Assembly: GCA_040904565.1 (NCBI GenBank)
Contig: JBBDTI010000034.1
Location: 1 to 42,676, forward strand
DNA from: Rhodothermales bacterium
Lineage (GTDB): Bacteria; Bacteroidota; Rhodothermia; Rhodothermales; VXPQ01
Reading direction: 5' to 3'
Length of the DNA stretch: 42,676 nucleotides
Part shown: positions 8,668-32,229 of the stretch, one piece after another
How the letters are laid out: every line of letters begins with the position of its first letter
Numbering within the stretch: the stretch's first letter is position 1
Program-made: the position numbers and the translations under genes
The notes under the pieces: generated by a model
Seen by the model: the letters and a program-made list of their open reading frames with translations, nothing else
Told to the model about the DNA's origin: nothing
Database searches by the model: none

Positions 8668-8722
8668 CTTAAAGGAAGTTAAGCCCGCGTTCAGTTTCCG
8701 TTAAGGTTCACGGTGGCATTTT
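8668..8722 (+). promoter_or_regulatory. Repeated promoter element, copy 1 (upstream of cfa)
   Basis: CTTAA-aggaag-TTAAG-cccgcg-TTCAG-tttccg-TTAAG-N11-CATTTT. Confidence 0.8.
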
Positions 8723-8828
8723 AGGTGGGTCTCCGATCGATGCACGCGAATATGCAAAGCATCAGGTGACATATACCCCCTTGTATGAAGGACACTGCCT
8801 GCCCTCACCTTATGAAATTCGTACACGC

Positions 8829-10055
8829 ATGCAACGATCGTCGTCGAACCCCAGATACAACAGGAGCTCGCCGGCACCGGCCGGCGACGAACACGCGCGA
8901 CCCGAACCGGCCCATCCGGCGTCGTCGCGCCCTGCGGCGCCATGGGCGGAGCGGGTCGTCCGGCGGCTGGCCGCGAGCGCCGGCCTCGAAATCGGCGGGC
9001 CGGAGCCGTGGGACCTCCAGGTCCACGACGGGCGCTTCTTCGGGCGCGTCCTCCGCGACGGCTCGCTCGGCCTTGGCGAGAGCTACATGGACGGGTGGTG
9101 GGACGCCGAGCGCCTCGACGAGACCTTCTATCGTCTGGTCGGCTCGGACGCCCGCCGTGCGGTGCGCACGCCTACGGTGCTCTTCTCCTCGCTTGCCGCC
9201 GCCCTGGTCAACAAGGGGCGGCCCTCGCGGGCGTACGATGTCGGGCACCGGCACTATGATCTCGGCAACGACCTATTCGAGGCCATGCTCGACCGCCGCA
9301 TGGTCTACACCTGCGGGTACTGGCACGAGGCCGCCACGCTCGACGCGGCGCAGGAGGCCAAGCTCGACCTCGTCTGCCGCAAGCTCGGCCTGCGCGAGGG
9401 CGACCGCGTGCTCGACGTCGGCTGCGGCTGGGGCAGCTTCCTCGCCTTCGCCTCCGAGCGGTACGGCGCGCACGGCGTCGGCGTCACCGTCTCGGAGGAG
9501 CAGGTCGCCCTCGCCCGCGAGCGGTTGCAGGGCCTTCATGTCGAGGTCCGGCTCGCTGACTACCGCGCCTTCGAGGATCCCGTGCCGTTCGACCACGTCG
9601 TCTCGCTCGGGATGTTCGAGCACGTCGACGTCAAGAACTATCGGATGTTCATGCGCGTTGTGCGTCAGCACCTCAGAGACGACGGCCTCTTCCTGCTCCA
9701 CACCATCGGCAGCAACCGCTCCGTCCGCACCATCGACCCCTGGCTCGAGCGGTACATCTTCCCCAACTCGATGCTTCCCTCCAACCGGCAGATCGGTCGG
9801 GCCATCGAGGGGCTGTTCGTGATGGAGGATTGGCACAACTTCGGTGCTCACTACGACCGGACGCTGATGGCGTGGTATGAGCGGTTCACGCGCGCGTGGC
9901 CGGACCTCCGCGCTCGCTACGACGAGCGCTTTCGGAGGATGTGGACCTACTACCTGCTCCAGTGCGCCGGCCTGTTCCGCGCGCGCGATGCTCAGCTCTG
10001 GCAGATCGTCCTCTCAAAAGACGGCGTGGCAGGCGGATACACGTCCACCCGCTGA
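8829..10055 (+). CDS. cfa: Cyclopropane-fatty-acyl-phospholipid synthase
   Basis: GLGESYMDGWWD, HYDLGNDLF, MVYTCGYW, SAM motif LDVGCGWG, RYIFPNS, ERFRRMWTYYL. Start uncertain (GTG 8766 also possible). Confidence 0.93.
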   Translation: MQRSSSNPRYNRSSPAPAGDEHARPEPAHPASSRPAAPWAERVVRRLAASAGLEIGGPEPWDLQVHDGRFFGRVLRDGSLGLGESYMDGWWDAERLDETFYRLVGSDARRAVRTPTVLFSSLAAALVNKGRPSRAYDVGHRHYDLGNDLFEAMLDRRMVYTCGYWHEAATLDAAQEAKLDLVCRKLGLREGDRVLDVGCGWGSFLAFASERYGAHGVGVTVSEEQVALARERLQGLHVEVRLADYRAFEDPVPFDHVVSLGMFEHVDVKNYRMFMRVVRQHLRDDGLFLLHTIGSNRSVRTIDPWLERYIFPNSMLPSNRQIGRAIEGLFVMEDWHNFGAHYDRTLMAWYERFTRAWPDLRARYDERFRRMWTYYLLQCAGLFRARDAQLWQIVLSKDGVAGGYTSTR

Positions 10056-10262
10056 CCACGGACCGTATCTGAAGCCGCGCATACTGTTGACGTTCTGGAA
10101 GTGCGATCCCGGTTCCATCTGCCGTGTCCATTTCCTGCCGTCAGACCATCTCCACATCGTTTCAAATCTGGTTAGCATCTCGGTCTAACTTGTCGTTGTT
10201 TGCAGATGTCAATGAGGTACTGGAAGAGCCTACTGAACATTCACCCGACCCTACGCACTATA

Positions 10263-10523
10263 ATGGATCTTCTCATCATCGCCACGAAGACGTGCCACCA
10301 CCGTCCAGACATGGAGCGTTGGCTCCAGGAGATGGGCCTCGAATACCACACCGTCTACGTGGAGGACGAACCGCGACAGGCCGAGCATTTCGGCATCCAG
10401 CACTCGCCCAACCTGATCATCGATGACGAACTCATCTTCCGGGGTATGCCTTCTGCCGGAGAGTTCGAAGAACGGCTCCATCAAGAGCAGGCGAAGCGCC
10501 GCCTCGAACCCCGCCGGACCTGA
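10263..10523 (+). CDS. Small thioredoxin/glutaredoxin-fold protein, single Cys (CHHR)
   Basis: Beta strand followed by TCHHRP, cis-Pro loop IQHSPNLIIDDELIFRGMP. Confidence 0.75.
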   Translation: MDLLIIATKTCHHRPDMERWLQEMGLEYHTVYVEDEPRQAEHFGIQHSPNLIIDDELIFRGMPSAGEFEERLHQEQAKRRLEPRRT

Positions 10524-10843
10524 CGCCGCCGGTCCCGTCGGCACGAGACAACCCGTTATCGTCTACTGCCGGGATGGCATGCGCGGCTGAATCCCGTCGG
10601 TTTGCCCACCGCAAGTGGAGCATCCGGCGCTTGACAACATCCCCCTCCCATGCAGCATCCGAAAGCCTCATCGCGGACGTGGGGCTGGACCGGGGTTGTG
10701 CAGCGTGGAAAAGCCATCACATACTTTAGTGGTTCTTACTAAACAGCATCGCCGTACGCTCTTCTTCCTTTCAACCACCCTCCAGACGACAGCGGCTGCG
10801 CCAGATCGCCGGAGCACTCGCCCGTCACGGCCTGGGATGGCTC

Positions 10844-12421
10844 GTGCTGGATCTCGGGCTCGGGCGCCTCGTCCCGTTCCACCACGGCATTCTTCGCCAC
10901 TCAGCCCGAAAGGATCCATATACCGGACCGGAACACCTTCGGCTCGCGCTGGAGGATATCGGCGTCACGGCCGTCAAGCTCGGTCAGATTCTGAGCACGC
11001 GCCCGGACCTGGTTCCGCCGGCGATAGCCGAAGAGCTGGCCGGGCTTCAGGACGACGCGCCGGCCATGCCTTTCGAGGAGGTCCGCCGGGTGGTGGAATC
11101 GGAGCTGATGCGCCCGCTAGAGGAGCTCTACACTCATTTCGAACGCGTGCCCCTTGCCGCGGCTTCGATCGGTCAGGTGCACGCAGCGAGACTTTCGGAC
11201 GGCACGGAGGTGGTGGTCAAAGTCCAGCGGCCCGGCGTAGAGGCCCAGGCCGAAGCCGATCTGGCTCTGCTCGACGAACTCGCCCGCGCCACAGCGACGC
11301 GCACGAAGTGGGGTCGTGAATACGACGTCCAGGGATGGGTGCGCGAGTTCACTTTCATCCTGCGCACCGAGCTTGACTACACGGCGGAGGCCAGACACGC
11401 GGAGCAGATTCGGCGCGACTTTGCCGAAGAGCCCGCCCTTTACGTTCCTATCGTCTTCTCGGAGCGCTCAGGCCGGCGGGTACTTACTCTGGAACGGCTC
11501 GACGGCATCAAGGTGGACGACGCCGCCGCGCTCGCGGCCGCCGACGTCGACCGCCGGGAACTGGCTCGGTCGTGCACACGGATCCTGCTCAGGATGATTC
11601 TCCGCAATGGCTTCTACCACGCCGATCCGCATCCCGGCAACGTCCTCGTCCTTCCCGGCGGCCGCATCGGTCTGCTGGACTTCGGAATGGTCGGTACGCT
11701 CGATGTAGGGACGCGTGAAGCACTGCTTCGCATCATTCTTGCCCTCGCCGCAGCCGATACGAACCGCCTCGTTGACGAGCTGACGGCTCTGGGCGTGGCC
11801 GGCCAGGCTGTTGCGCGCGGTCCGCTCAAGCAGGATCTCGAGCAGCTTCGCCGCCGGTACGTCGGGCGTCCGCTCAAGGACATCGCTGCATCGGCGGCTT
11901 TCCGCGACATTATGGATGTCGCCCGGCGCCATCGGCTTCGACTGCCGGCCGAGCTCGTTCAACTGGCCAAAGTGACGGCCATGGCTGAGGGTACGGCCCT
12001 CAGGCTCGATCCCGAGTTCGAGATCCTGTCGTATTCGCTTCCCTACGTTCGCCGGTTCTGGCTTCGCGCGCTCTCCCCCCGCGCCCGCGCACGCCGGCTG
12101 GGCGGATCGCTGTTGGACCTCGCAGGGCTGGGCGAGTCGCTGCCCCACCAGTTGCGTCGATTGAGCAACCAGCTCGATTCAGGCAACCTTCCTCTTTCTA
12201 TCTCCGCCGATCCGTCACCTGAGACGCTGCGCCGCATTGAACGCGCCGGAAACAGGGTGGCATTCAGCGTACTCACGGCGGCCGTCATGGTGGGCGCAAG
12301 CCTCCTCTCTCTCGCCTACCATCCCTTCGGCGGTCACGCAGTTTTCGTGGCCGTGGCAGCGCTTGCCGTCCTTCTCGCAATCGGTCTCGGACTGGCACTC
12401 TGGCGTCGCGGGCGACTCTGA
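10844..12421 (+). CDS. AarF/ABC1/UbiB family atypical kinase
   Basis: VKLGQILSTRPDL, AAASIGQVH, VVKVQRP, ELDY, FYHADPHPGN, LLDFGMVG, two C-terminal TM helices. The conserved-looking N-terminus extends upstream of this GTG. Confidence 0.92.
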   Translation: MLDLGLGRLVPFHHGILRHSARKDPYTGPEHLRLALEDIGVTAVKLGQILSTRPDLVPPAIAEELAGLQDDAPAMPFEEVRRVVESELMRPLEELYTHFERVPLAAASIGQVHAARLSDGTEVVVKVQRPGVEAQAEADLALLDELARATATRTKWGREYDVQGWVREFTFILRTELDYTAEARHAEQIRRDFAEEPALYVPIVFSERSGRRVLTLERLDGIKVDDAAALAAADVDRRELARSCTRILLRMILRNGFYHADPHPGNVLVLPGGRIGLLDFGMVGTLDVGTREALLRIILALAAADTNRLVDELTALGVAGQAVARGPLKQDLEQLRRRYVGRPLKDIAASAAFRDIMDVARRHRLRLPAELVQLAKVTAMAEGTALRLDPEFEILSYSLPYVRRFWLRALSPRARARRLGGSLLDLAGLGESLPHQLRRLSNQLDSGNLPLSISADPSPETLRRIERAGNRVAFSVLTAAVMVGASLLSLAYHPFGGHAVFVAVAALAVLLAIGLGLALWRRGRL

Positions 12422-12642: not shown

Positions 12643-13030
12643 ATGCCGGATTTCGTGTTTCTAGCCGCCTTCCCGACAGCCTTTGTCGCAATCACAGTGT
12701 TACTGTAGTACGTCTCCCGTCGCGATCGACGCGTTGCACCGGAGCCCGATCTCGACGGCGTTCGGGAAGCAATCGTTCATATCGGATTGGAAGGCTTTGC
12801 GCCGGACTTGATCATCGTACCCCAAGGCGAACCGGTACGCATCGTCTTTCAGCGGGACTCGGAAGCCCCCACGTGCACACGACGTGTGCGTCTGACCGAC
12901 TTCGGGAAGGCGGCGTTCATGCTAGAGGACGACGTCAGTGAAGTCGAGTTCGTGCCCGAACGTCCGGGGCGCTATCTGTTCAGCTGCATCAGGCACCGGC
13001 ACCGAGGGCAGATTCTGGTGAGGCCGCGGC
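12643..13030 (+). pseudogene. Membrane-anchored cupredoxin-domain (CupA-like) pseudogene
   Basis: ATG 12643, TM helix, in-frame TAG at 12706 (LL*YV), then GFAPDLIIVPQGEPVRIVFQR...EFVPERPGRYLFSC, similar to 24010-24384. End approximate. Confidence 0.75.
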
Positions 13031-13061
13031 GCAATTCATCCATAGGCGTTCCGTTACGGGA

Positions 13062-13714
13062 GTGCAAATCCGACGAAGCCATCTTCGTTTTGCTTGCCGC
13101 GTTCCTCCTGGCGGGTGCGGGCGGGATCACCGACGCACGTCCCCGGCACTGCTTCATCCTACAGAGCGAGAGCAGCATCCGCATTGAGGGCAGCACAAGT
13201 GTAGCGTCGTTCACGTGCGAGGCCGGTCAGACCACGGGATACCTGATTCACGATGGAGGAGCACAAACGGCACACACCGACGCGAGAGCCGCGCCGGAGG
13301 CTTTCTTGACTGTACCGGTAACGAACGTCCTTCACCTGTGGAGATCGACGCATGGACCGTGACCTGAACCGAGCGCTTAGAGCGAGCGAATTTCCGGAGA
13401 TTGCCTATGAGCTGCTCGACGTGGAGGTGCTCAATGGTCCACCGGATGCCCGCGAAACGCACGAGTTACTTGCCAGGGGAAACCTGACTGTTGGCGGCGT
13501 TACCCGGCGCATCGAAACCCGCGTGAGTGGAAAGCGCCTACCGGATGGACGTCTGCGTGCAGTCGGCGTCCAGGAGTTCATGATGAGCGACTTCGACATC
13601 GAGCGGCCGACGGCGCTATGGGGCCTCATCAAAGCCCGCGACGATCTCGCGATCCGGTTCGATATCATTGCCGGAGCATTACCGGAGTTGGCAACCGGGA
13701 TGTTCGATAACTGA
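13062..13714 (+). pseudogene. YceI family (polyisoprenoid-binding) protein, frameshifted
   Basis: Signal peptide, ESSIRIEGSTSVASFTC. A 4-bp tandem duplication AACG/AACG at 13320-13327 shifts the frame before SFTCGDRRMDRDL...GNLTVGGVTR...MSDFDIERP. Start approximate. Confidence 0.75.
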
Positions 13715-13861: not shown

Positions 13862-14944
13862 ATGAAGAACGAACAGAAGATCCGTGTGGCGGTCAACGGC
13901 TACGGCGTCATCGGAAAACGAGTGGCCGACGCCGTCGCCGTACAGGAGGACATGACCCTCGCCGGTGTCGCTGACGTCGTAACGGACTGGCGCGCACGGG
14001 TCGTCCGATCTAAGAACTATCGCCTCTTCGGTGCAACTGTGGAGCGGACAGATGCCATGGAAGTGTCCGGTCTCGACCCGGCCGGCACGCTCGACGACCT
14101 CCTGGATGGCGCCGACATCGTCGTGGACTGCACTCCGAAGAAGGTGGCCGCCGGGAACGTCGCGCGTTATCGCGAGCGTGGCATAAAGTTCATCGTGCAG
14201 GGCGGCGAGAAACATGCCGTGACGGGCCACTCCTTTACTGCCGAGAACAATTACGACACGGCGCTGGGCCGCGACGCCACGCGCGTGGTCTCCTGTAACA
14301 CGACGTCGACGGTTCGGACACTCTCTGCCCTAAAGCGAGCCGGGCTCCTTCGACGCGCACGCGGCACCCTGCTCCGACGTGCTACCGATCCGTGGGAAAG
14401 CCACCTTGGCGGCATTATGAATACACTCGTACCGGAGGCCGAGATTCCCAGCCACCAGGGGCCCGACGCCCAGACGGTCGATCCCGATCTCGACGTAGTA
14501 ACGATGGCGGTGAAGGTCCCCGAGACGCTCGCGCACCTACACTACTGGAGCGTGCAACTCACCCGGGCGGCCGAGAAACAGGAGGTCCTCGAGGCCCTCC
14601 GCGGCTCTTCTCGCATCGCATTCATCCGCATGGACGACGGTCTCACCGCCCTCAACACCGTCAAAGAGCTGATGGCCGACCTTGGACGTCCGCACGATAA
14701 TCTCTACGAGGTTGCGCTCTGGGAGGACATGCTGGCTGTGCAGGGCGACGAAGCGTTCTATGCCTACATGGTGGATAATCAGGCCATCGTCATCCCGGAG
14801 ACCATTGACGCCATCCGCGCACTGACGGAGCGAGAGCCTGATGGTGAAGCCTCCATCCGCAGGACGAATGCGGCACTCGGCATCACCGGCCGGCTCGTCG
14901 GGGCCGACATGGCGACCGCTTCCAATTCGCGATCAGGCCACTGA
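13862..14944 (+). CDS. gap: Type II (archaeal-type) glyceraldehyde-3-phosphate dehydrogenase
   Basis: VAVNGYGVIGKRVADAV, VDCTP, QGGEKH, catalytic RVVSCNTT, RRATDP, SHQGPD, AIVIPETIDAIRA. Confidence 0.92.
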   Translation: MKNEQKIRVAVNGYGVIGKRVADAVAVQEDMTLAGVADVVTDWRARVVRSKNYRLFGATVERTDAMEVSGLDPAGTLDDLLDGADIVVDCTPKKVAAGNVARYRERGIKFIVQGGEKHAVTGHSFTAENNYDTALGRDATRVVSCNTTSTVRTLSALKRAGLLRRARGTLLRRATDPWESHLGGIMNTLVPEAEIPSHQGPDAQTVDPDLDVVTMAVKVPETLAHLHYWSVQLTRAAEKQEVLEALRGSSRIAFIRMDDGLTALNTVKELMADLGRPHDNLYEVALWEDMLAVQGDEAFYAYMVDNQAIVIPETIDAIRALTEREPDGEASIRRTNAALGITGRLVGADMATASNSRSGH

Positions 14945-15013: not shown

Positions 15014-15691
15014 ATGAATGAGACCATAGCACACTCGGGCGCGTGGGGTATGGCGGCCATCGTGATCGTAATTGTTTCGTGGGTGCTCTACAAGTACCTG
15101 GCTCCGAAGTCGTGGCGGGAGTGGGCAGGGGCGGGCCTGGTGCAGGCCTTCGTCATCGCGCTCTACGCCGAGATGTACGGCTTTCCGCTCACGATCTACT
15201 TACTCGCACGCGTCTTCAAGCTGGACGGCGGCGGTCTCAATGCCAACCTCTGGTCCACGCTGCTCGGGCAAGGCGAGACGGGCATGGTCATATCCATGCT
15301 GCTAGGATACGGTCTGCTGTTTGTCGGCATAGGTCTCTTTTTCCAGGGCTGGAGGGAGTTGCACCGCGCGCGTCAGGAGAAGAGACTCGCGACGGGAGGG
15401 CTGTACGGCCTGGTCAGGCATCCGCAATACACGGGGCTTTTCATCGCCATTTTTGGTGAGGGGATCGTGCACTGGCCGACCATTTTCTCGGTCGTCGCGT
15501 TCCCCGCCATTGTCCTCACCTACGTCCTGCTTGCACGGAGGGAAGAGAGACAGGTGGCCGAAGAATTCGGCGAGGAATACCGGGTCTATCAGAAGCAGGT
15601 CCCCATGTTTATTCCGCGCCGTGGTCAGTGGATGCAGCTCCTCAAACCCTCTGACGTAGCTGCCGACGACGGAAAACAGGCCGTCCCATAG
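15014..15691 (+). CDS. Isoprenylcysteine carboxyl methyltransferase (ICMT/PEMT) family membrane protein
   Basis: AGGAG RBS, TM helices, GLYGLVRHPQYTG, EE...FGEEYRVYQKQVPMFIP. Confidence 0.88.
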   Translation: MNETIAHSGAWGMAAIVIVIVSWVLYKYLAPKSWREWAGAGLVQAFVIALYAEMYGFPLTIYLLARVFKLDGGGLNANLWSTLLGQGETGMVISMLLGYGLLFVGIGLFFQGWRELHRARQEKRLATGGLYGLVRHPQYTGLFIAIFGEGIVHWPTIFSVVAFPAIVLTYVLLARREERQVAEEFGEEYRVYQKQVPMFIPRRGQWMQLLKPSDVAADDGKQAVP

Positions 15692-15721: not shown

Positions 15722-16429
15722 ATGCAATATCCCTACTTCCTCTGGAGTCTGCTTCTGGTCATTCCGTGGCTTGCCGTGTATGTTCGACTTCCGGATCGGC
15801 AAAGTCGTAAACACTTGCTAACCGTGAGCCTCCTCACGGCGCCCCTCGTAACCGAACCGATCTTCGTGCCGGAGTACTGGCTGCCGCCAACCCTCTTCGA
15901 CCTGGCCGCGCGCACCGGCTTCGACACCGAAAGCTTAATCTTCTCCTTCGCCGTCGGTGGGCTCGCCTCCGTCGGATACGACGTGTTCCTTGTTCGGCAC
16001 CGGGTATCCATCCCCGTAGAAGGAAGACGGACGCGACGACATCGTTATCACCTGCCAGTCCTGCTCTCGGCGCCCGTTCTTTTCGGCATCCTGTATCTCG
16101 CTACGAGCTGGAACCCCATCTATTCGGCCTCTCTCGCCCTGCTGGTGGCGGGAATGCTTACGTGGTACTGTCGCCCTGACCTAGTGCGGTCGATGTTCGC
16201 TACGGGGATACTGTTCGCTTTGTTCTACTTCGTCTTCTTCTTAACCCTCGCTCGTTTTCACCCGCTGTATGTTGAGCAGGTGTGGAATCTCGGCGCGATA
16301 TCAGGTGCACTCGTGGCGGGGGTACCCCTGGAAGAACTTCTGTTCGCTTTCTCGTTCGGGTTCCTCTGGTCCAGCGCCTACGAGCACGCCACGTGGCGGT
16401 CCTACGAGTCGCGAGAGGTGCGGGCATGA
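15722..16429 (+). CDS. Lycopene-cyclase-domain membrane protein
   Basis: Multi-TM protein with a twofold internal repeat ending GFDTESLIFSF and GVPLEELLFAF. Confidence 0.7.
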   Translation: MQYPYFLWSLLLVIPWLAVYVRLPDRQSRKHLLTVSLLTAPLVTEPIFVPEYWLPPTLFDLAARTGFDTESLIFSFAVGGLASVGYDVFLVRHRVSIPVEGRRTRRHRYHLPVLLSAPVLFGILYLATSWNPIYSASLALLVAGMLTWYCRPDLVRSMFATGILFALFYFVFFLTLARFHPLYVEQVWNLGAISGALVAGVPLEELLFAFSFGFLWSSAYEHATWRSYESREVRA

Positions 16430-17109: not shown

Positions 17110-17365
17110 TTTACGCGCCGTCTCGAGCTTTACCGTTCCGTCGGGGCGATTGAATGAAGTAAACGCACGCGGCTTGGGTCGATGCTCGAAAGTGCGTGGT
17201 ACCGGCTTCGGCGTTGCGAGCCGGAAGCGAACTCGAGCCGCACTTAGGCCGCACGGCTCAACCAAGGGGGCAAGAAATGCTTTCCGGTCCGCGGCGTGCC
17301 CTTCTTTGCGGGTTGTGGCCTCGGGATGTACAGAGCCAAAAAGCGCCACTCAGAGCACGTTGACG

Positions 17366-24009: not shown

Positions 24010-24384
24010 ATGACTGCCAATCTCATCGTCATTCTTACAGGTATCCTGCTGTCGATCGGTGTCGCCTGGTTTTTCTGGGGCGGCAAACGGAAAGGCGTAC
24101 GCGCCGCGCTGACCTCCGGCGGCTACCAGGAGGCCCTCGTACTCGTGAAGGGCGGCTATTCGCCCGACAGGATCATCGTGCAGCGCGGCAAGCCCGTCCG
24201 GTTGTCTTTCCTCAGGGAAGAGTCGAACGCCTGCTCCGAAACGGTGGTGTTTCCCGATTTCCGCAAGTCGGCCAGGTTGCCGGAAGGCAGGACGGTCCCG
24301 ATCGAGTTCATTCCGGACACGGCCGGAGAGTTCGACTTCCAGTGCCAGATGGGCATGTTTCGCGGAAAGCTCGTCGTTCAATAA
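24010..24384 (+). CDS. Membrane-anchored cupredoxin-domain protein (CupA-like copper chaperone)
   Basis: N-terminal TM helix, GGYSPDRIIVQRGKPVRL, NACSE, FQCQMGMFRGKL; starts 2 nt after copA. Confidence 0.88.
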   Translation: MTANLIVILTGILLSIGVAWFFWGGKRKGVRAALTSGGYQEALVLVKGGYSPDRIIVQRGKPVRLSFLREESNACSETVVFPDFRKSARLPEGRTVPIEFIPDTAGEFDFQCQMGMFRGKLVVQ

Positions 24385-24628: not shown

Positions 24629-26584
24629 ATGCAGCGTCCGAAGATTCAGCTCGCTATCCTATGGCATCAGCATCAGCCGATGTACGCCCACCCAACCGCC
24701 GAGTCGCGGCGAGGTCGCTTCGGCCAACCGTGGGTCCGCCTGCATGCGATCCGAGACTATTATTCGATGGCCGCACTTATCGCCGAGCATCCGGATCTCC
24801 ACCTCACGATTAATCTGACGCCGGTGCTGCTTCGGCAAATTGAAGATTACACGGAAGGCGCTACGGATATCGCCCTCGATCTGACGCGCCGTCCCGCAGA
24901 AGATCTTTCACCGGAAGAACGGGAACGGATTCTTACGACCTTCTTCGACGCAGACTGGCATCACCAGATATTTCCGCATCTTCGCTACAAGGAACTATTC
25001 GAGCGACGCCGAGAAGGTGCTGACTTTACGTCGCAGGAGGTCCGCGACCTTCAGATGTGGTTCAATCTGGCCTGGTTTGGAAAGGAGTTTCGAGACGGGG
25101 ACGTACAGCTCATCACGGGCGAAACTGTGACCGTGAGCCACTTCGTCGAGCTAGGCGAGGGATTTACCGTCGAGCAGATTGGAGCCATGATCGAGGAACA
25201 GCTCAAGATTCTCCGCGCCGTCGTTCCCGTACACCGCGCGTTGCAGGATCGCGGACAGATCGAGGTATCCACAACACCGTTCTACCACCCTATCCTCCCC
25301 CTTCTTATCGACTCCGACTCTGCCACCCTCGACCGCGCCGGTGCCACCCTGCCGAACCGCTTCGCCTATCCGCAAGACGCCGATGCCCAGGTGAAACGCG
25401 CCGTCGACTTCTACACTGCCCGATTCGGCCGCCGGCCTCGCGGAATGTGGCCGGCCGAGGGCGCCGTCAGCCAGTCGGTCGTCCCCATCTTTGCGCGCCA
25501 CGGTGTCGAGTGGATCGCCACGGACAGAGACGTGCTCTTACACTCCGGCCGCTGGGGGTATGAAGCCTATCGGGGAGACGTCCTCTGCCGTCCGTATCGC
25601 GCGGAGGCTGGCAGCCATGCGATCAGCGTCTTTTTCCGGGATCCCGAACTCTCGGACGCCGTGGGGTTCCACTACTACGATTATTCGGATTATCATGCGG
25701 CCGCCAGACACTTCGTAGATACAATGAAGCGCCACTGCGTACACGGCGGTGATCGCATCCACACGGTCATCCTCGACGGCGAGAACGCATGGGGAGCCTA
25801 CCGCGAGGACGCCCGGCCTTTTCTGCACGCTCTATACGGACTGCTCGAAAGCGACCCAGAGATCGTCACCGTTACGCTTGCTGAATACCTGTCGGGGAAT
25901 GCCACACGAGGTATCCGTCCGCATTCGCTGTACGAGCAGGAGAAGGTGCACGATCTTTACAGCGGCTCGTGGATTGATGAGATGGGCTCGGCGCCGGGCC
26001 CGGATCACGGTACGTGGATCGGCGAAGAGGAAGAAAACAGGGCCTGGGAACTGCTGCTCCAGGCGCGCGAGTCACTCGACGCTGCCGGCGCTACGCCCGA
26101 TTCGACCCCGGACGCGTTCGAATCGCTCTACGCTGCGGAAGGCAGCGACTGGTTCTGGTGGTTCGGTGCCGACCAGGACTCCGGACGCGACTGGGAATTC
26201 GACGAGCTCTTTCGAGCCCATTTGCGAAACGTGTACCGCGCCCTCGGCCGTTCCGCTCCATCGGAGCTGGATCGGCCTGTCGTTCCGCACGTTGCCGTGT
26301 GGACGTTTTCCGATCCTATTTCGAGCGTCTGGAAAGGAGACCGGCTGAGCATCCAGACGCACTGCCCGGGCGACCTTACCTGGCACTGGGATGCCGAGCC
26401 GGCGGCCACCACACCTCTCGAACCTGCAGGCGGCGTCATGGCCGGGACCGGCCGCTATTACAAGACCCTCGAGGTACCAATCGGCGCCCACAGACTGCAT
26501 TTCACGTTCGGGTGCACGCACCGAGACTGCGACGAACGAGATGTCTGCTGCCGCGAGGCCTATCAGGTCGTTCAGGTACGCTGA
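24629..26584 (+). CDS. Glycoside hydrolase family 57 (amylopullulanase-like)
   Basis: LWHQHQP, WVRLHA, PFYHPILPL, WPAEGAVS, ILDGENAW, AEGSDWFWW; extra C-terminal beta domain with a Cys cluster. Confidence 0.92.
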   Translation: MQRPKIQLAILWHQHQPMYAHPTAESRRGRFGQPWVRLHAIRDYYSMAALIAEHPDLHLTINLTPVLLRQIEDYTEGATDIALDLTRRPAEDLSPEERERILTTFFDADWHHQIFPHLRYKELFERRREGADFTSQEVRDLQMWFNLAWFGKEFRDGDVQLITGETVTVSHFVELGEGFTVEQIGAMIEEQLKILRAVVPVHRALQDRGQIEVSTTPFYHPILPLLIDSDSATLDRAGATLPNRFAYPQDADAQVKRAVDFYTARFGRRPRGMWPAEGAVSQSVVPIFARHGVEWIATDRDVLLHSGRWGYEAYRGDVLCRPYRAEAGSHAISVFFRDPELSDAVGFHYYDYSDYHAAARHFVDTMKRHCVHGGDRIHTVILDGENAWGAYREDARPFLHALYGLLESDPEIVTVTLAEYLSGNATRGIRPHSLYEQEKVHDLYSGSWIDEMGSAPGPDHGTWIGEEEENRAWELLLQARESLDAAGATPDSTPDAFESLYAAEGSDWFWWFGADQDSGRDWEFDELFRAHLRNVYRALGRSAPSELDRPVVPHVAVWTFSDPISSVWKGDRLSIQTHCPGDLTWHWDAEPAATTPLEPAGGVMAGTGRYYKTLEVPIGAHRLHFTFGCTHRDCDERDVCCREAYQVVQVR

Positions 26585-26713
26585 TCGGCTCCGCTGCTGA
26601 TGCGGCGAAGGATCGCTCTCGCATCGCGGACCTAACTAATCGGTTCTATTTCCCCGAGCGGCTCCCGACAAGCAGTTCGACGCAAGTGTCCTCCGGCCCT
26701 CAGTATCCGCGCA

Positions 26714-26959
26714 TTATATCATCGGTAGCAACCACCTGGCATCCCGGGACGTCAAGGAGTAGCGGTCCCAGCGCCGTCCGGCCTGGACGTCGAACGCTTC
26801 GAGGCAGCATGGACGAACGAATACGATCGTCGGAGCTTCCGGCAGCGCATCGGGATCACTTAGAAGCTGGATGTCCCGATGGTCTTCAACATCCGTCTCG
26901 CATATCGAACAGCAGTAGATCGGTGCTCCCGTTTGAGCATCGCACTTCATTTTGGTCAT
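26714..26959 (-). CDS. Small Cys-rich hypothetical protein
   Basis: MTKMKC...YCCSICE...RPCCLE. It is the clearest ORF downstream of the minus-strand promoter copy. Confidence 0.55.
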   Translation of the reverse strand: MTKMKCDAQTGAPIYCCSICETDVEDHRDIQLLSDPDALPEAPTIVFVRPCCLEAFDVQAGRRWDRYSLTSRDARWLLPMI

Positions 26960-27083
26960 GGTTTTGCCCCGTCTGGTTGGTGCAATGAAGCCCGACACAT
27001 CCGTCACGATGACCGTTGCATCGGCCGTACACCGACTCGGCCCTCCGGGCTCGAGTCGGGAGGTATCTCAACGTTCCTCAAAT

Positions 27084-27127
27084 AGGATACGTGATCGCAC
27101 CTTAAGAGAACCTGAAGCTCATCTTAA
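27084..27127 (-). promoter_or_regulatory. Repeated promoter element, copy 7 (minus strand)
   Basis: Minus strand reads TTAAG-atgagc-TTCAG-gttctc-TTAAG-N11-TATCCT; no inverted first box. Confidence 0.8.
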
Positions 27128-27274
27128 AAACAATCTCCCGACTCATCGCACTCACCAATCAGCGAAGCACAACGATCATCGCTTTCGCCGGCGGATCGTT
27201 ACAATTCGATGACGCGAACGTGGTTTTCCTTCGAGCACGAAGATCTGGCGAGGTCAGGGTGCATACGACGCGAG

Positions 27275-27329
27275 CTTAACGCATTTTAAGCTCGCTTTCA
27301 GGTTGTATTAAGCCATGTCTTCGTTTCTT
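27275..27329 (+). promoter_or_regulatory. Repeated promoter element, copy 8 (upstream of second SPW protein)
   Basis: CTTAA-cgcatt-TTAAG-ctcgct-TTCAG-gttgta-TTAAG-N11-TTTCTT. Confidence 0.85.
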
Positions 27330-27375
27330 GACCTGTAGCATTGGAGGTCACCCGAATTATACCGAGGTACATGAG

Positions 27376-27708
27376 ATGAAAGCCTTTCTACAACGGTATG
27401 CATGGCTCAATGGCATCCTGGGCATTTGGGTTGCCGCGACACCCTTCTTTGGATTCGACCACGTCGTCGTTCTCGCCAGCAATCTTGTCGTCGGTGCTTT
27501 CGCTCTGCTTTCCGGCTTCGCGATCAACACCATCAAACCGTGGCAGGGATGGACGCTGGCCCTCCTGGGATTCTTTCTCTACCTGACCGCCTTCTTCTTC
27601 GAGCTGCACATCGGCTCGAACCTATGGTGGAACAACATCACGGTCGGTGGCCTCATCGCGATTGCCGGCTTTGCAGCCCGGCAGGGGACATCGGCTCGAG
27701 CCTCGTAG
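27376..27708 (+). CDS. SPW-repeat-like four-TM membrane protein
   Basis: WLNGILGIWVAATPF...SNLVVG and WQGW...WWNNITVG; paralog of 16591-16911. Confidence 0.78.
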   Translation: MKAFLQRYAWLNGILGIWVAATPFFGFDHVVVLASNLVVGAFALLSGFAINTIKPWQGWTLALLGFFLYLTAFFFELHIGSNLWWNNITVGGLIAIAGFAARQGTSARAS

Positions 27709-27732
27709 TGACAGGCGGGAAATGGAATGCTC

Positions 27733-27787
27733 CTTAACGAATATTAAGTCGACTTTCAGGATCGTTTCAGCTCCTGCGCCTCATCTT
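27733..27787 (+). promoter_or_regulatory. Repeated promoter element, copy 9 (upstream of USP)
   Basis: CTTAA-cgaata-TTAAG-tcgact-TTCAG-gatcgt-TTCAG-N11-CATCTT. Confidence 0.85.
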
Positions 27788-27838
27788 GGTCTTGGAATAA
27801 GAACGGACGGTTTCACATCCCAAAACGGAGATCTTGCC

Positions 27839-28288
27839 ATGTTGAATCTCAAGAATATCTTAATCGCCCATGATCTCGACCACAGCTCGGATCAAGCCCT
27901 GCGATACGCGACCGACCTCGCCGAGACAACCGGCGCGACACTGCACGTCGTCTATGGCGCGCTAGAGGATGGAGACCCGGACAACGTGCCACCTGAGGCC
28001 GAACTCCCGGATTCCGTGTTTCTTGAGCAAATCAAGAACGGCTCGTCGCCTCTTCCAAGCGGATCGCGCGTGGCAAGCACGATCGATGTGGAGTACGCGG
28101 TCGCGCGCGGTCTAAACCCCGCCGGCGCCCTCGTTCAATACGCAGACGAGCACGCCATCGATCTCATCGTAACCGGTTCGCACGAGCGTTCCACCGTCGG
28201 CCGCTTCCTTAGAGGATCCGTGTCCGAAAAAGTCGCACGGGCTGCATCATGTCCGGTCTCCATCGTGAAGCCCCATGCAAGAGCCTAG
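27839..28288 (+). CDS. Universal stress protein (UspA family)
   Basis: KNILIAHD...ALRYA; IDLIVTGSH...RFLRGSVSEKVARAASCPVSIVK; GGAG RBS. Confidence 0.9.
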   Translation: MLNLKNILIAHDLDHSSDQALRYATDLAETTGATLHVVYGALEDGDPDNVPPEAELPDSVFLEQIKNGSSPLPSGSRVASTIDVEYAVARGLNPAGALVQYADEHAIDLIVTGSHERSTVGRFLRGSVSEKVARAASCPVSIVKPHARA

Positions 28289-28313
28289 CTAACTTGGAGC
28301 ACGGAGACGCGCT

Positions 28314-28907
28314 ATGAAGAACTTCCTCCGATATGCCGCCTGTCTGATGGCCCTCGTGCCGGCCGCCACACCAGCGATGGGACAGCACCATTTATTCGGG
28401 GAGGACGTCGGGGGCTACGTTGGACCGGTCGTGAAGCTCTCGAATATCGACAGGACGCCGGCGTTCTTTATGGGCGCACGAGCGGGTATGACGCTGGGGA
28501 TCGCCGAGGAGGCGCGCCTGAGCGTCGGTGCCGCCATGTACGGGATGATGAACGGCGTGCGGGTCGTAAACCGCGACTACCTTCAGTTTGGCTACGGCGG
28601 CCTCGACCTCGAGTACGCTTGGCGGCCCGACGAAATCCTTTACTTCTCCATCAGGGCGCTCATCGGCGCAGGTACGGCCGATGCCGACAGCGAGGTCCGG
28701 CGACGGGTCTCCCATATGTGGACGAACGGTCCGGCCCTGTTTGTCGCCGAGCCCGGGATCGGTCTTACCCTCAACGCGGCCCCAGGGCTGCGACTTGGTG
28801 GAGCCGTCACGTACCGGAATGTGGGCGGTTCCGCGATCACGTCGCTACGCGGCGCAAGGCTGAGCGGATGGTCGGGACAGCTCGAGCTGATATGGGGTCG
28901 GCACTGA
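28314..28907 (+). CDS. Small outer-membrane beta-barrel protein
   Basis: Signal peptide, Gly/aromatic-rich alternating strands (FGYGGLDLEY, FVAEPGIGLTLN). Confidence 0.7.
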   Translation: MKNFLRYAACLMALVPAATPAMGQHHLFGEDVGGYVGPVVKLSNIDRTPAFFMGARAGMTLGIAEEARLSVGAAMYGMMNGVRVVNRDYLQFGYGGLDLEYAWRPDEILYFSIRALIGAGTADADSEVRRRVSHMWTNGPALFVAEPGIGLTLNAAPGLRLGGAVTYRNVGGSAITSLRGARLSGWSGQLELIWGRH

Positions 28908-29042
28908 CGACGCGCATCGGTCGGTCCTGCGCCGGCCGGGTCCCAGAGCTACGTCCACGAGCAACGTAGCCCACTCGAACGCCAATTCTCGCTTCGCCCG
29001 TACAGGTTCGTCGAAACAGGCAATCGCATCCGCGCGAATAGT

Positions 29043-30497
29043 CTACCGTCGCAGAACGACCGCACTACCCGTATGAACCGTAACACCTGTGTCGAGCACA
29101 TAATGATACGTTCCACTGGGCAGATGTGAGGCATCCAGGACGATCTCATGGCGGCCGGGCGCCGCAATGTCTCTGTCTACACGTACTCGCTCACGACCGA
29201 GCACGTCGAAGACCTTAAGGGTAATATCACGGGCGCCGTCCGCGACGAAACTTACGTGGGTGACCGTTGAGAACGGATTCGGATAAACCCGGGTGGATCG
29301 ATCGTACGTCCGCTGCGGCATATCGATGTGCTCTCGGGAGGTGCTCGTGCTAATCTGCCAGCAGGCCAGGCCGCTCGCCGGGATCACGTCCACCGCTGCG
29401 AAGGAACCGCCGACGTGCAGCATGCCGCCTTGCCCTACGGACAGAGCATGCACGAGGTTGTCGGTCCCGCCCTCAAGAGCGGACCACCGGCCGTCTTTCC
29501 AGCGTGCCACGTGGCGGGCAGATACGTTGCCTGCCCGCGTAAAGTAGCCCCCGATATACAGGGAACCGTCTGCCCCAATAGCCATGGCGTGTACGCCGCC
29601 GTCAACACCTTCGCCCATCGGTGACCAGCGACGACCATCCCAACGAGATAGATACGGAGACGAAAGATCGCCGGCCGCGTCGAAGTTTCCGCCGGCGTAG
29701 AGCCTCCCCCGTGGATCCAGTGCGAGCACCCACACGGGCCGCGCGTCAAAGGGTGGATGAATACCGCCGCCCAGCGCCTCCCATTCCGTGCCGTTCCAGA
29801 GTGCAACCTGGTGCGCCGTCTTACCGCCTGCCGTTGTAAATCCGCCGGCCGCGTAGAGCCTTCCGTCAGGTGCAGGTGCCAGAGCCATGACATTGTGATC
29901 CATGCCGCTGCCGAGCGCCTGCCAGCTCCCGTCTTGCCACATGGCGATGTAGCTCGCAGCAGCATCTCCGGCGCGCGTGAAGGATCCGCCCGCGTAGAGC
30001 GTACCGTCCGGCCCCACGGACAGCGCGTATACCGTAGAGTTCATACCACCTCCAAGAGGTTCCCACGACCGCCCGTTCCAGCTGGCAACGTATCCGATAC
30101 GACGACCGCCCGCCTCAGTAAAGCTTCCTCCAGCGTATAGTGTGCCGCCATCGTCGACGACAAGCGCTTGAACGGCGCCATTGACTCCTGATCCCAGATT
30201 CGAAAAGCGCACCCCGTCCCACATCGCCACTCTATTGACCATCTCAATACCGGCAGTGACGAAGAATCCTCCTATGTAGAGCGTATCGCCATGCACCGCG
30301 AGTGCCATGACATCTCCGTCCAATGCAGGGAACGCACTCGACCAGTGAGTTGACGCGGTCTCGGCTGGAAAATGCTGAGCGGTTGCTCTACCAGACAGAA
30401 ATCCGGCTACGGCCGAGCACACGAGCATCGAAGCGAGTAATCTCAGTCTATACATGCTACGCACCTGGAGAGCCGTCGCCATCGTGAGATACTGCAC
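29043..30497 (-). CDS. Secreted beta-propeller repeat protein with T9SS type A C-terminal sorting domain
   Basis: Signal peptide; six repeats of about 50 aa (LYAGGSFTxAG...VAxWDG..W..LGxG); C-terminal VYPNPFS...LKVFDVLGRE...DASHLPSGTYHY. Start uncertain. Confidence 0.88.
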   Translation of the reverse strand: MQYLTMATALQVRSMYRLRLLASMLVCSAVAGFLSGRATAQHFPAETASTHWSSAFPALDGDVMALAVHGDTLYIGGFFVTAGIEMVNRVAMWDGVRFSNLGSGVNGAVQALVVDDGGTLYAGGSFTEAGGRRIGYVASWNGRSWEPLGGGMNSTVYALSVGPDGTLYAGGSFTRAGDAAASYIAMWQDGSWQALGSGMDHNVMALAPAPDGRLYAAGGFTTAGGKTAHQVALWNGTEWEALGGGIHPPFDARPVWVLALDPRGRLYAGGNFDAAGDLSSPYLSRWDGRRWSPMGEGVDGGVHAMAIGADGSLYIGGYFTRAGNVSARHVARWKDGRWSALEGGTDNLVHALSVGQGGMLHVGGSFAAVDVIPASGLACWQISTSTSREHIDMPQRTYDRSTRVYPNPFSTVTHVSFVADGARDITLKVFDVLGRERVRVDRDIAAPGRHEIVLDASHLPSGTYHYVLDTGVTVHTGSAVVLRR

Positions 30498-30642
30498 GAT
30501 AGTCGCATCAGCTCATGGAATAGTGTGGGCGCAACCCCAATTGATTAGAGGGCGGATGGCGTGATCGTGCGCGGTTCGATCACCTACACGTCCCGCATTA
30601 TTGGTCGAGTAGGTAGGACGTCGCCGGGCTTCCCGTGCACGT

Positions 30643-30698
30643 CCTAACCGCTTTTTAAGCTTGTTTTAAGATTGTCTTCAGGTTGTCCGCCCGAAATT
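30643..30698 (+). promoter_or_regulatory. Repeated promoter element, copy 10 (upstream of second tandem USP gene)
   Basis: CCTAA-ccgcttt-TTAAG-cttgtt-TTAAG-attgtc-TTCAG-N11-GAAATT. Confidence 0.8.
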
Positions 30699-30780
30699 AG
30701 GATTCAAGATGACGATACCTTCATACACCCTCGACATTGCCTGTTGTCCGCGACACACTTCCTACCCGAAGCCTCAGCCT

Positions 30781-31644
30781 ATGCCTGCCGACGCGTTTTC
30801 GAGCGATTTTTCCATTCTGATCCCCGTTGCGCTTCCGTCCTCCGGACCGGCCCTCCTGCGCGTGGCGCGACTTTTTGCGCCGCCGGAGTCGCTGCGGGTG
30901 ACTGCACTCCACTGCTGGGACGAGCGCGAGTTCAGGTCACAAGCGTACGAACATCGCAACGAGGGAATTATCGACAGCCCCCTCGTTCCACTGCTCGATT
31001 CCGCCGACGCCGTCGAAGTGGACCCGCTCTGTTTCGTGAGTGCCGACATCGGGCACGATATCGTATCAATTGCACGGGAGCGATTCACGGACCTCATCCT
31101 TATGGGATGGCACCGGCCGATGACTCACGACGACGAGTCAACCGGCCCGGTCGATACCGTCCTCCAAGACGCGGACAGCGACGTCGCGCTGTTGCTGAGC
31201 CGCCGTTTCAGACCCGTTCGACGCGTACTCGTACCCTATTACGGCGGCCTGCACGATCGCCGCGCTCTCGTTCTGGCCGGGCGAATCGCTCGTGGGCCGG
31301 CGTCGGCGGTAACCGTGTTGCACGTCGTGAATCCGAAGGGCACGGACTCTCCCGGCCTGCGACAAAGCGGCCTCGTCGACAAATCGAACGACGGGGAGGT
31401 GCGCCTCAAGGTCGTCGAACACGACAACCCCGTAGACGCCGCTATACATGAAGCATGGTTGGGCTACGATCTGATTATCGCAGGGGCGTCCGAGACCTGG
31501 GGCGTCAACGAATCGCCATTCTCCGAGGGGCTGCAGAGACTCGCATTCGCTACGCCCGCCTCGCTACTCGTAGTCCATGCCGGTCGCGCACATGCCCCGT
31601 CAAGATGGGCTCCGGAATCCGCAGTCCTCAACACGTCCGACTGA
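30781..31644 (+). CDS. Tandem USP domain protein
   Basis: Close paralog of 19030-19887 (IPVALPSSGP, TALHCW, RRVLVPYYGGLHDRRA, RLAFATPASLLVV). Alternative start 30709. Confidence 0.85.
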   Translation: MPADAFSSDFSILIPVALPSSGPALLRVARLFAPPESLRVTALHCWDEREFRSQAYEHRNEGIIDSPLVPLLDSADAVEVDPLCFVSADIGHDIVSIARERFTDLILMGWHRPMTHDDESTGPVDTVLQDADSDVALLLSRRFRPVRRVLVPYYGGLHDRRALVLAGRIARGPASAVTVLHVVNPKGTDSPGLRQSGLVDKSNDGEVRLKVVEHDNPVDAAIHEAWLGYDLIIAGASETWGVNESPFSEGLQRLAFATPASLLVVHAGRAHAPSRWAPESAVLNTSD

Positions 31645-31660
31645 AGGTGCTTCGCGGTTC

Positions 31661-31715
31661 CTGAAGGGATTTTAAGGCCCGCTTCAGGTTCGCTTAAGCT
31701 AATCGGCCTTTGCTT
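31661..31715 (+). promoter_or_regulatory. Repeated promoter element, copy 11 (upstream of P-II-like gene)
   Basis: CTGAA-gggatt-TTAAG-gcccgc-TTCAG-gttcgc-TTAAG-N11-TTGCTT. Confidence 0.85.
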
Positions 31716-31760
31716 CCGGTAAGGACGGCACGCATCACCTGTAATAGACCGGAGCTTACG

Positions 31761-32078
31761 ATGCGTTACTACAAGATCCACGCCTACGTCCGAAACAGCG
31801 TACGCGAAGACGTCGAAAAGGTGCTTCTAAAGCTCGGAGTCGACGGCTTTACCTTTTACCGTGTCAAAGGCGTCGGCGAATATGCGAATTACTTCAGCCG
31901 CCTGCACCACGTGGAACACACCCAGTTCGAAGTCTTCGTGACGGAAACGGATGTCGACCTGCTGATAGATGCTATTGTTAGCAGCGCCAGCACACCAGCG
32001 AAGGGCGACGGACTCATCGCGGTAATGCCCGTTGACCGCGTGGTCCGCATTCGGAATCACGCGGAGCTCGATGCGTGA
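31761..32078 (+). CDS. P-II family protein
   Basis: KIHAYVR...GVDGFT...VKGVG...ASTPAKGDGLIAVMPVDRVVRIR; GGAG RBS. Confidence 0.85.
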   Translation: MRYYKIHAYVRNSVREDVEKVLLKLGVDGFTFYRVKGVGEYANYFSRLHHVEHTQFEVFVTETDVDLLIDAIVSSASTPAKGDGLIAVMPVDRVVRIRNHAELDA

Positions 32079-32174
32079 CCCCCATCAAAGGAGATTCCGC
32101 CGCGCAGGTCTGTCCCGCTTGTCTGCCTTCTCGATGCGCCGGCAGGGCCGCTCACCCGAACGATGCCGGGCATC

Positions 32175-32229
32175 CTGAAATAATTTTCAGCTTGCCTTAA
32201 GGCTGGCTTCAGACGTGTAGCCGTTCATT
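32175..32229 (+). promoter_or_regulatory. Repeated promoter element, copy 12 (upstream of cusCBA-like operon)
   Basis: CTGAA-ataatt-TTCAG-cttgcc-TTAAG-gctggc-TTCAG-N11-TTCATT. Confidence 0.85.

Follow-up and report, generated by a model that had tools for sequence, protein, structure and literature searches.

The window analysed here is the whole of contig JBBDTI010000034.1 (C34; 42,676 nucleotides) from the draft genome of a Rhodothermales bacterium (assembly GCA_040904565.1; G000; 4.02 Mb, 95 contigs, 61.5% GC). Two copper P-type ATPase genes, cupredoxin genes and cusCBA are found there together with cfa and with genes for a type II GAPDH and for USP, SPW-repeat and P-II-like proteins, and between these genes one element recurs, made of four short boxes followed at a fixed distance by a hexamer. 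The same element lies on a second contig, C33, beside the genes of a two-component system. Two further contigs of G000 are named below (C61 and C84), comparison genomes bear working codes of the form G0xx, and individual loci carrying relatives are coded L0xx. DNA matching positions 26600-33600 of the window was met in four DNA runs, all from one sediment study, and in none of the RNA runs listed.

A preliminary description of this DNA had listed 12 copies of the element, and direct reading of the sequence at all 12 coordinates found it at every one, in ten cases in the complete form CTKAA-N6-TTMAG-N6-TTMAG-N6-TTMAG-N11-hexamer over 55 bp. Box 1, which had been taken for a separate kind of box, is an inverted copy of the others: read on the opposite strand, CTKAA is TTMAG, and the flanking bases agree with the inversion (ACCTKAAA is tTTMAGGT read backwards), so that the array consists of an inverted box and then three direct ones, with a constant period of 11 bp. 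The starts of boxes 2-4 are exactly 11 bp apart in 14 sites, as had been claimed, and likewise in 83 matches from 22 genomes described below; direct repeats at such helical-turn spacing (10-11 bp) are a mark of OmpR/PhoB-type class II operators. All 12 hexamers read as they had been listed, with a final T in 12/12 and an A at the second position in 9/12. Two starts had to be shifted, to 21651 instead of 21653 and to 30644 instead of 30643, and the copy at 12554 proved to be a weaker, three-box variant (CTTTA-N6-TTAAG-N6-TTAAG-N11-TAGATT), in which CTTTA is of the inverted type and both TTAAG boxes are perfect. Nor is the set confined to the window, since three more copies on C33 bring the sites in G000 to 15 (12 on C34 and 3 on C33).

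The sites are not identical in strength. In the minus-strand copy, whose box 2 starts at 27127, three perfect direct boxes follow an unrecognisable box 1 position that reads GGAGA, and single-base variants of the boxes occur, for example, at 13766 (GTTAA and GTAAG), 21651 (CTTTG and CTCAG) and 30644 (CTAAC). A position weight matrix (PWM) built from 14 of the sites gives these 14 scores of 38.5 to 54.6, the highest at 27275, versus 11.2 for the 12554 copy in four-box register. The scores of these 14 sites with their own matrix are circular, and independent support is therefore taken from regular-expression counts, from foreign genomes and from the -10-like positions, which lie outside the matrix. 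The spacer between boxes 3 and 4 is the sole conserved one (gTTg, with T in 10/15 and 14/15 and G in 10/15 sites), perhaps as the remnant of a -35-like TTG or as an additional point of contact with protein.

The arrangement lies far beyond chance and is restricted to the island. The exact triple box TTMAG-N6-TTMAG-N6-TTMAG occurs 12 times in the genome, nine times on C34 and three times in C33:1-7000. From the 8849 single boxes counted on both strands, about 10 pairs and about 0.01 triples would be expected; 34 pairs were observed, 26 of them on C34 or C33 and the remaining 8, elsewhere, at about chance level. With up to one mismatch, the triple box is found 11 times in the window, against a mean of 0.00 and a maximum of 0 in 100 dinucleotide-preserving shuffles. 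The best PWM match outside the island, C61:53463(-), scores 18.3 versus at least 38.5 for the real sites and was treated as chance; hence there is no second locus in the genome. As the preliminary description had it, every copy faces a gene: all 15 sites lie between long open reading frames (ORFs) and point at the downstream one, which begins 28-53 nt past the hexamer in 9/15 sites (full range 10-183 nt). Its further claim that the copies are no mobile repeat is also borne out, since pairwise identity among them is 0.85 in the boxes, 0.37 in the spacers and gap, and 0.27 in the flanks (40 nt upstream, 38 nt downstream). Conservation of the boxes and the -10-like positions alone, with flanks at random identity, means that the copies are neither duplicated DNA nor a mobile element. 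No Rfam family was matched in the window.

Downstream of the array, at +16 to +21 counted from the first base of box 4 and thus at a fixed 11 nt past that box, stands the sequence nAnnTT. Position +17 is A in 11/14 of the strong sites of G000, and positions +20 and +21 are T in 12/14 and 13/14; for 17 sites of foreign genomes the corresponding figures are 14/17, 13/17 and 16/17, often with a G next. We infer that these positions are -10 elements: in the 14 own and the 17 foreign sites alike, the proximal repeat holds a fixed place relative to them, where a -35 element would otherwise lie. The promoter character first proposed for the element gains support from this constancy, and it seems almost certain that we are dealing with a transcription-factor operator and promoter. 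Although nAnnTT(G) resembles the Bacteroidota -7 box TAnnTTTG (PMC9723704), a crude count upstream of long ORFs in G000 found TAnnTTTG not to be enriched (31 versus 43 in a reversed control), with mild enrichment of TTGACA (27 versus 11) and TATAAT (28 versus 18). The identification with the -7 box was accordingly set aside, and the element is called -10-like only.

The preliminary description had further supposed an activator of the OmpR/PhoB family, encoded outside the window. No Trans_reg_C match was found on C34, and the genome holds eight in all, one of which, at C33:7430-7669, belongs to an OmpR-family response regulator with receiver and Trans_reg_C domains (C33:6995-7696; hereafter RR). 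It adjoins a candidate histidine kinase (C33:7701-9119; HK) with HAMP, HisKA and HATPase domains and a 2CSK_N N-terminus. A look through flanking sequence for such a regulator with its sensor kinase had been advised, and it yields this pair, divergent from a site: the RR start lies 86 nt from box 1 of site 6876(-), which points away from it, with a second site, 6725(-), beyond. The RR gene is the only OmpR-family gene near any of the sites.

By sequence, RR and HK are nearest to the CusRS/CopRS family, below the curated cut-offs. The best NCBIfam match of RR is the heavy-metal response regulator model TIGR01387 (213.6 bits, cut-off 279.2), its score with the Cu/Ag regulator model NF007346 being 195.9 bits, and that of HK is the heavy-metal sensor model TIGR01386 (253.6 bits, cut-off 292.55). 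RR is not an orthologue of PmrA (158.7 bits, cut-off 330) or QseB (158.9 bits, cut-off 345), and no BqsR model stands among the best 25 of 83 matching NCBIfam families. The likeness to PmrA, QseB and BqsR drawn earlier was thus right for the BqsR box precedent and wrong for the regulator, which is nearest to CusR/CopR rather than PmrA/QseB. In HK, F39-H40 (forming with H44 an FH-x3-H pair) lies just after the first transmembrane segment and H164 just before the second, and among 20 orthologues F39-H40, H44 and H164 are kept in 17, 18 and 19. For Ag(I)/Cu(I), CusS has the binding residues H42/F43/H176, and CorS uses H34/H38/H171 (PMC10100754); the membrane-proximal equivalence with the HK residues would be positional only.

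Other genomes couple the element with this regulator. Related genomes are not independent samples, and the co-occurrence ratios given here consequently overstate the statistics, the pattern being consistent all the same. Among 41 relatives the triple box was found in 6 genomes, none of them among the 18 genomes of the same family, and across 201 Rhodothermales genomes the four-box pattern (inverted box included, up to one mismatch) gave 83 matches in 22 genomes versus 3 for the reversed control. At a threshold of E<=1e-60, RR is present in 18/22 of the pattern-bearing genomes and in 43/179 of the others. In 15/18 of the genomes with both, the RR gene has a four-box site 54-222 nt upstream of its start, in divergent orientation every time. 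In this sense the proposal of an OmpR/PhoB-family activator is supported, as the RR orthologues both co-occur with the four-box site and adjoin it. Orthologues from high-GC genomes keep only boxes 1 and 2, which suggests that this inverted pair may be the core site.

Within 13 kb of G039, orthologues of island genes stand behind four to five sites, and its RR (74-76% identical) and HK (68%) are divergent from one site; G030 has two RR-HK copies, each adjoining a four-box site; and the surrounding gene content differs among the islands of G000, G039 and G030. We also scanned 40 contig loci with relatives of RR (L011-L050) by PWM at a threshold of 18. Loci L011-L022, whose RR is 57-82% identical, have a match above 18 in 7/12 cases, within about 230 nt of the RR start in 6; loci L023-L050 (28 loci) have none above 18, and 26 of them hold an RR of at most 52% identity (L049 and L050 match residues 1-41 only, L043 being a fragment of 99 residues). 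Roseithermus sacchariphilus, of which cultures exist, is among the carriers, with an RR 76% identical and a site 151 nt upstream of it. It is at L011 that the closest regulator (82%) and kinase (73%) are found, in a metagenome bin labelled Gemmatimonadaceae, all other close relatives being Rhodothermales, and this label reflects either mis-binning or transfer between phyla. Elsewhere, the sites of G031:C1 are almost all of the TTCAG type and dispersed along the chromosome, those at 2100466 and 2102130 being nearly identical, and at G072 locus L069:3497-3519 three overlapping PWM matches 11 bp apart mean that more than four boxes stand in register.

On C84 (38900-39705; L058:9900-10700) a paralogue of RR, 58% identical, diverges from a site of its own that is built in the same way from different boxes, CTTAA-N6-TAAAG-N6-AAAAG-N6-TAAAG-N11-TATACT, which fits the idea that this subfamily of regulators reads such arrays. 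A second large regulon with paralogue-type boxes ([TAG]AAAG in triplicate) was considered and rejected, as there is one such site only in the genome; nAAAG-type sites adjoin paralogues in G003 and G033 as well. The recognition helix reads DNVIDVT in regulators next to TTMAG boxes and DNAIDVT or DNALDVT next to nAAAG or reduced sites; the sequences are few and related, and this correspondence is not used as evidence. On the regulator side of box 1, at a distance of 2-3 nt, the sequence CAAWGTTTC occurs in G000 (C33:6910-6995; L001) and at L003, L011, L012, L022, L067 and L072, that is, in 7/8 distinct regulator genes of at least 70% identity (that of G000 included), and L014 (65%) is without it. 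On the regulator strand it becomes AAACWTTG and matches the nAnnTTG consensus, but no more than 6 nt separate it from the box. It may serve as the promoter of the regulator operon itself, which binding at box 1 would possibly occlude.

The sites and the genes behind them are collected in Table 1.

Table 1. Sites and associated genes on C34 (the window) and C33 of G000; PWM, score with the matrix built from 14 of the sites
Site or feature	Contig	Coordinates	Strand	PWM	Genes behind the site
Candidate regulon members, promoter off contig	C34	19..5576	+		second copper P-type ATPase 19-1956; intervening ORFs; FAD oxidoreductase 4359-5576
Four-box site + CATTTT	C34	8668..8722	+	49.2	cfa 8766-10055; thioredoxin-like ORF 10200-10523; ABC1 kinase 10844-12421
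Three-box variant + TAGATT	C34	12553..12596	+	11.2 (four-box register)	cupredoxin-like ORF 12787-13362; YceI-like ORF 13352-13714
Four-box site + GATATT	C34	13766..13820	+	47.3	type II GAPDH 13862-14944; PEMT/ICMT-like methyltransferase 15014-15691; lycopene-cyclase-domain protein 15722-16429
Four-box site + TACGAT	C34	16489..16543	+	48.8	SPW-repeat protein 16591-16911; CitMHS_2 permease 17075-18853
Four-box site + GATCTT	C34	18865..18919	+	49.4	USP 19030-19887; orf19904 (no assigned function) 19904-20551; HtrA-like Trypsin_2 20636-21232 + PDZ 21213-21569
Four-box site + TAGCTT	C34	21651..21705	+	43.0	copper P-type ATPase (first ATG past site 21797, end 24007); cupredoxin 24010-24384; GH57 24629-26584
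Three direct boxes + TATCCT, box 1 position degenerate; divergent from site 27275	C34	27084..27138	-	38.5	97-aa ORF 27007-26714 (-)
Four-box site + TTTCTT	C34	27275..27329	+	54.6	SPW-repeat protein 27376-27708
Four-box site + CATCTT	C34	27733..27787	+	46.2	USP 27839-28288; orf28314 (no assigned function, probably secreted) 28314-28907
Four-box site + GAAATT	C34	30644..30698	+	50.2	USP-domain protein 30709-31644
Four-box site + TTGCTT	C34	31661..31715	+	49.3	P-II-like protein 31761-32078
Four-box site + TTCATT	C34	32175..32229	+	46.9	cusC-like 32283-33593; cusB-like 33608-35098; cusA/czcA-family 35146-38298
Sites next to RR	C33	6876 and 6725	-		small membrane ORF; LTXXQ-family gene; methyltransferase; DUF2231; copper-resistance multicopper oxidase; CopB
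Site near contig end	C33	466	-		patatin gene, cut by contig end

The copper and silver genes of the island comprise two copper P-type ATPases, cusCBA, a multicopper oxidase, CopB and cupredoxins, several of them with strong family matches: TIGR01511 for the ATPase behind 21651 (605.8 bits, cut-off 397) and for the second one (631.2 bits), TIGR00914 for the cusA/czcA-family gene (1244.1 bits, cut-off 701.45) and TIGR01480 for the multicopper oxidase (763.6 bits). This linkage to efflux and detoxification genes, as in heavy-metal two-component systems, agrees across genomes. The commonest families among the first ORFs behind 69 sites in 16 other genomes are OEP (9), P-II (5), P-type ATPase, USP and cupredoxin (3 each), multicopper oxidase, HMA and PEMT (2 each), with single cases of CMAS, patatin and DUF411, and the conserved core behind the sites, as predicted from these family assignments, is Cu/Ag efflux and detoxification. 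The genes at 19..5576 are probable members whose promoter would lie beyond the contig: a PWM scan found no four-box site in window 1-8600, and in G039 the orthologues of the ATPase and the FAD oxidoreductase (83% and 67% identity) stand in an operon behind a four-box site.

Several island genes deserve a remark of their own. The Cfa assignment rests on 567.9 bits with NF008686 (cut-off 400). The GAPDH, directly behind its four-box site, is of the archaeal type (type II; NF003251, 444.6 bits, cut-off 185) in a bacterium, and it may be a stress-induced replacement of the standard enzyme. The Trypsin_2 and PDZ parts of the HtrA-like protease (20636-21569) lie in different frames, the parts in G030 sharing one frame, so that G000 has here either a frameshift or a faulty assembly. 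The 97-aa ORF behind the minus-strand site has six Cys residues (CC, C-x2-C) and no family match, and its site diverges from that of the SPW gene 170 bp away. A beta-propeller protein with a type IX sorting domain (Por_Secre_tail; 29043-30497, minus strand) is encoded by the only sizeable gene in mid-island without a site in front. The small P-II-like gene, with a site of its own, directly precedes cusCBA with its separate site, and the order P-II then cusC recurs in G037 and G030 (loci L005 and L006).

Tandem half-sites one helical turn apart are known for PhoB at pho boxes (doubled at pstS) and for TorR at the four tor boxes. There the repeat nearest the promoter stops about 10-11 bp short of the -10 element and replaces the -35; four-half-site arrays thus exist, with all repeats direct. 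The arrays described here differ from those in half-site sequence and in the inverted distal box, which is conserved across genomes. Closer in sequence is the box of BqsR/CarR: BqsR of Pseudomonas aeruginosa, an autoregulatory OmpR-family protein, binds TTAAG(N)6TTAAG overlapping the -35 and activates (PMC4358008), with the same pentamer and 6-nt spacer (11-bp period) as in our sites, and the precedent invoked in the preliminary description is confirmed by that paper. BqsR has, however, two direct boxes where we find four, the first inverted; its degenerate position is TTAMG rather than TTMAG; and BqsS senses Fe(II) via RExxE, whereas the kinase here is nearest to the heavy-metal Cu/Ag family. 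HP1043 (HsrA) of Helicobacter pylori, also of the OmpR family, reads TTTAAG-N5-TTTAAG, a nearly identical hexamer (tTTAAG) at 11 bp centre to centre; unlike our candidate it is an orphan, non-phosphorylated and essential, with two boxes and, in the accessible part of PMC5253667, no link to metal resistance. The CusRS/CopRS systems (E. coli CusR, P. paraeruginosa CusR/CopR, C. glutamicum CopR) provide the best sequence families for RR and HK and share a regulator divergent from a copper-resistance operon and targets such as multicopper oxidase, P-type ATPase and CusCBA (PMC11195947 and PMC3140484); the membrane-proximal His residues of their sensors have counterparts in HK by position only. Their operators, as described in those two papers, are ATTCATnnATGTAAT, AAAATGACAAnnTTGTCATTTT or TGAAGATTTnnTGAAGATTT, none of which is present here.

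A mechanism can be outlined from these likenesses. Periplasmic Cu(I)/Ag(I) would activate HK, which would phosphorylate RR; RR, probably in the form of two dimers, would then bind the array. With a transcription start about 7 nt past the -10-like element, the boxes would be centred near -59, -48, -37 and -26, so that RR would fill all four of them along one face of the DNA, between about -61 and -24, with the array covering the place of the -35. Bound RR would recruit RNA polymerase to promoters without a -35, as PhoB does at pho boxes or BqsR at its own, and at least 15 promoters with about 30 or more genes would be switched on, over C34:8.7-38.3 kb and C33:1-6.9 kb, within one accessory island. 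RR very probably binds the boxes, and there is an equally strong likelihood that it activates rather than represses, for which the identical geometry at all promoters argues. The reading as a whole, in which the element is a composite operator and promoter through which an OmpR-family regulator activates a Cu/Ag-responsive island regulon, we hold to be reasonably probable on sequence grounds, and about as much can be said for copper or silver as the main signal.

Several observations weigh against this reading. The regulator and the window lie on different contigs, so that their physical linkage is a deduction from shared sites and from synteny with G039. The best family scores of RR and HK fall below their cut-offs, and the HK sensor domain has no significant match among solved structures, CusS included. 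Searches of C34 and C33:1-9200 with the three published copper-system operators, palindromic or direct-repeat in form, and the PRODORIC CopR consensus, at up to one mismatch, gave 0 matches. The characterised CusR/CopR regulons comprise one or very few sites versus 15 here (PMC3140484 and PMC11195947). About half of the targets in G000 are not obviously metal genes (three USP, two SPW, cfa, GAPDH-II, GH57, patatin, HtrA-like). Lastly, the 43/179 genomes that match RR in spite of lacking the strict pattern hold partly paralogues and partly high-GC orthologues, and 4/22 pattern-bearing genomes have no RR match (two of them with single chance-like matches and one genome being 62% complete).

The main rival keeps the same operator and regulator and takes the signal to be general envelope or membrane stress of the Cpx kind, or redox or low oxygen, with copper as one inducer at most; we consider it unlikely. 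One point in its favour is the first large gene divergent from RR, C33:5687-6463(-), which matches LTXXQ (PF07813, 28.7 bits) and Metal_resist. In the Cpx system, cpxP is likewise divergent from the two-component genes cpxRA. The LTXXQ family is that of CpxP, Spy and ZraP, and the same divergent arrangement is seen in G039 and G030. The HtrA/DegP-like protease, cfa, patatin, the PEMT-like methyltransferase, the three USP and the two SPW membrane proteins would suit such a signal too, as would the HK sensor without detectable similarity to that of CusS. Yet the LTXXQ protein, secreted judging by a signal-peptide-like N-terminus, consists of 19.7% Met, with runs such as GGMMQGGMMQGGMM. Runs of this kind are typical of periplasmic proteins that bind Cu(I)/Ag(I); this one may be such a binder or a modulator of the kinase. 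Moreover, RR scores 195.9 bits with the Cu/Ag model versus 125.9 bits with CpxR (cut-off 341), and HK 253.6 bits with the heavy-metal model versus 114.5 bits with CpxA (cut-off 486), values that do not speak for Cpx orthology; metal efflux genes are the commonest behind the sites across genomes; and no match to the CpxR-type motif used was found at up to one mismatch.

It is improbable that a different DNA-binding protein, be it another response regulator or an unlinked factor, reads the boxes and that the adjacency of RR is a by-product of island synteny. The genome does hold eight OmpR-family genes, the 58%-identical paralogue among them, 3/18 genomes have no strict site adjoining RR, and the adjoining site points away from RR; however, the adjacency in 15/18 genomes extends over at least six families, with differing gene content in the three islands compared, the paralogue has its own, different type of box, the scan of island ORFs turned up no DNA-binding domain in any other protein, and the loci with more distant regulators outside Rhodothermales-like records carry no site (0/28).

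That the regulator is a repressor or roadblock released on signal strikes us as very improbable. An array reaching to about -24 would occlude the -35 region, and the weak TTG in the spacer of boxes 3 and 4 might be what is left of a -35; against this, the spacing to the -10-like element is fixed, with one value at every site here and in other genomes alike, and no site overlaps that element. A rigid distance between operator and -10 is typical of class II activators such as PhoB and BqsR, whereas the sites of repressors usually stand at varying positions, overlapping the -10 or the transcription start. Finally, the notion of non-regulatory remnants of a mobile or duplicated promoter cassette, to which the clustering of the copies in one island and the patchy distribution of that island among relatives (0/18 in the same family) might lend some colour, is ruled out for practical purposes by the flank identity of 0.27, only the boxes and the -10-like positions being conserved, and runs counter also to the intergenic, gene-directed placement of all copies and to the occurrence of the same architecture before non-homologous genes in 22 genomes.

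The Cu/Ag-responsive activator regulon that we favour belongs to a kind already well known, that of two-component activators with phased tandem boxes. The literature on Rhodothermus, Rhodothermales and Salinibacter, supplements lying outside the search, gave no relevant copper regulon or regulator, and neither did the available part of PMC10141476. The metal-responsive activator regulon that we propose, in the style of PhoB or BqsR, would be of an ordinary type and of unusual size, and none has been described in this lineage. A bolder version, which we hold to be rather improbable, would see in it a self-contained, horizontally moving "metal-proofing" regulon of Rhodothermales, in which a CusRS-like sensor has been wired to far more than efflux by means of an operator architecture not described for the OmpR family, new genes joining by acquisition of the 55-bp cassette. 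If true, it would account for 15 promoters here where characterised CusR/CopR systems have one site; the half-sites, of which one is inverted and three are direct, would imply a tail-to-tail plus head-to-tail tetramer; the archaeal-type GAPDH would replace a copper-sensitive glycolytic enzyme; and the targets would include lipid remodelling (cfa, PEMT-like, patatin), the HtrA protease, USP and SPW proteins and a P-II-like signalling protein gating CusCBA.

What sets the system apart is the pairing of a BqsR/PmrA-like box with a CusR-like regulator at 15 promoters reaching well past metal efflux. It would also be a metal two-component system with a far larger regulon than the single-site CusR/CopR paradigms. 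The inverted first box, conserved across 22 genomes, raises a concrete structural question on DNA recognition by the OmpR family. About 30 genes would be assigned to one stress response, among them several with no assigned function, namely those of the SPW proteins and the P-II-like protein, orf19904 and the small Cys-rich ORF. For the Rhodothermales, a lineage with almost no experimental data on gene regulation, the analysis provides a precise and testable cis-regulatory code together with a named candidate regulator.

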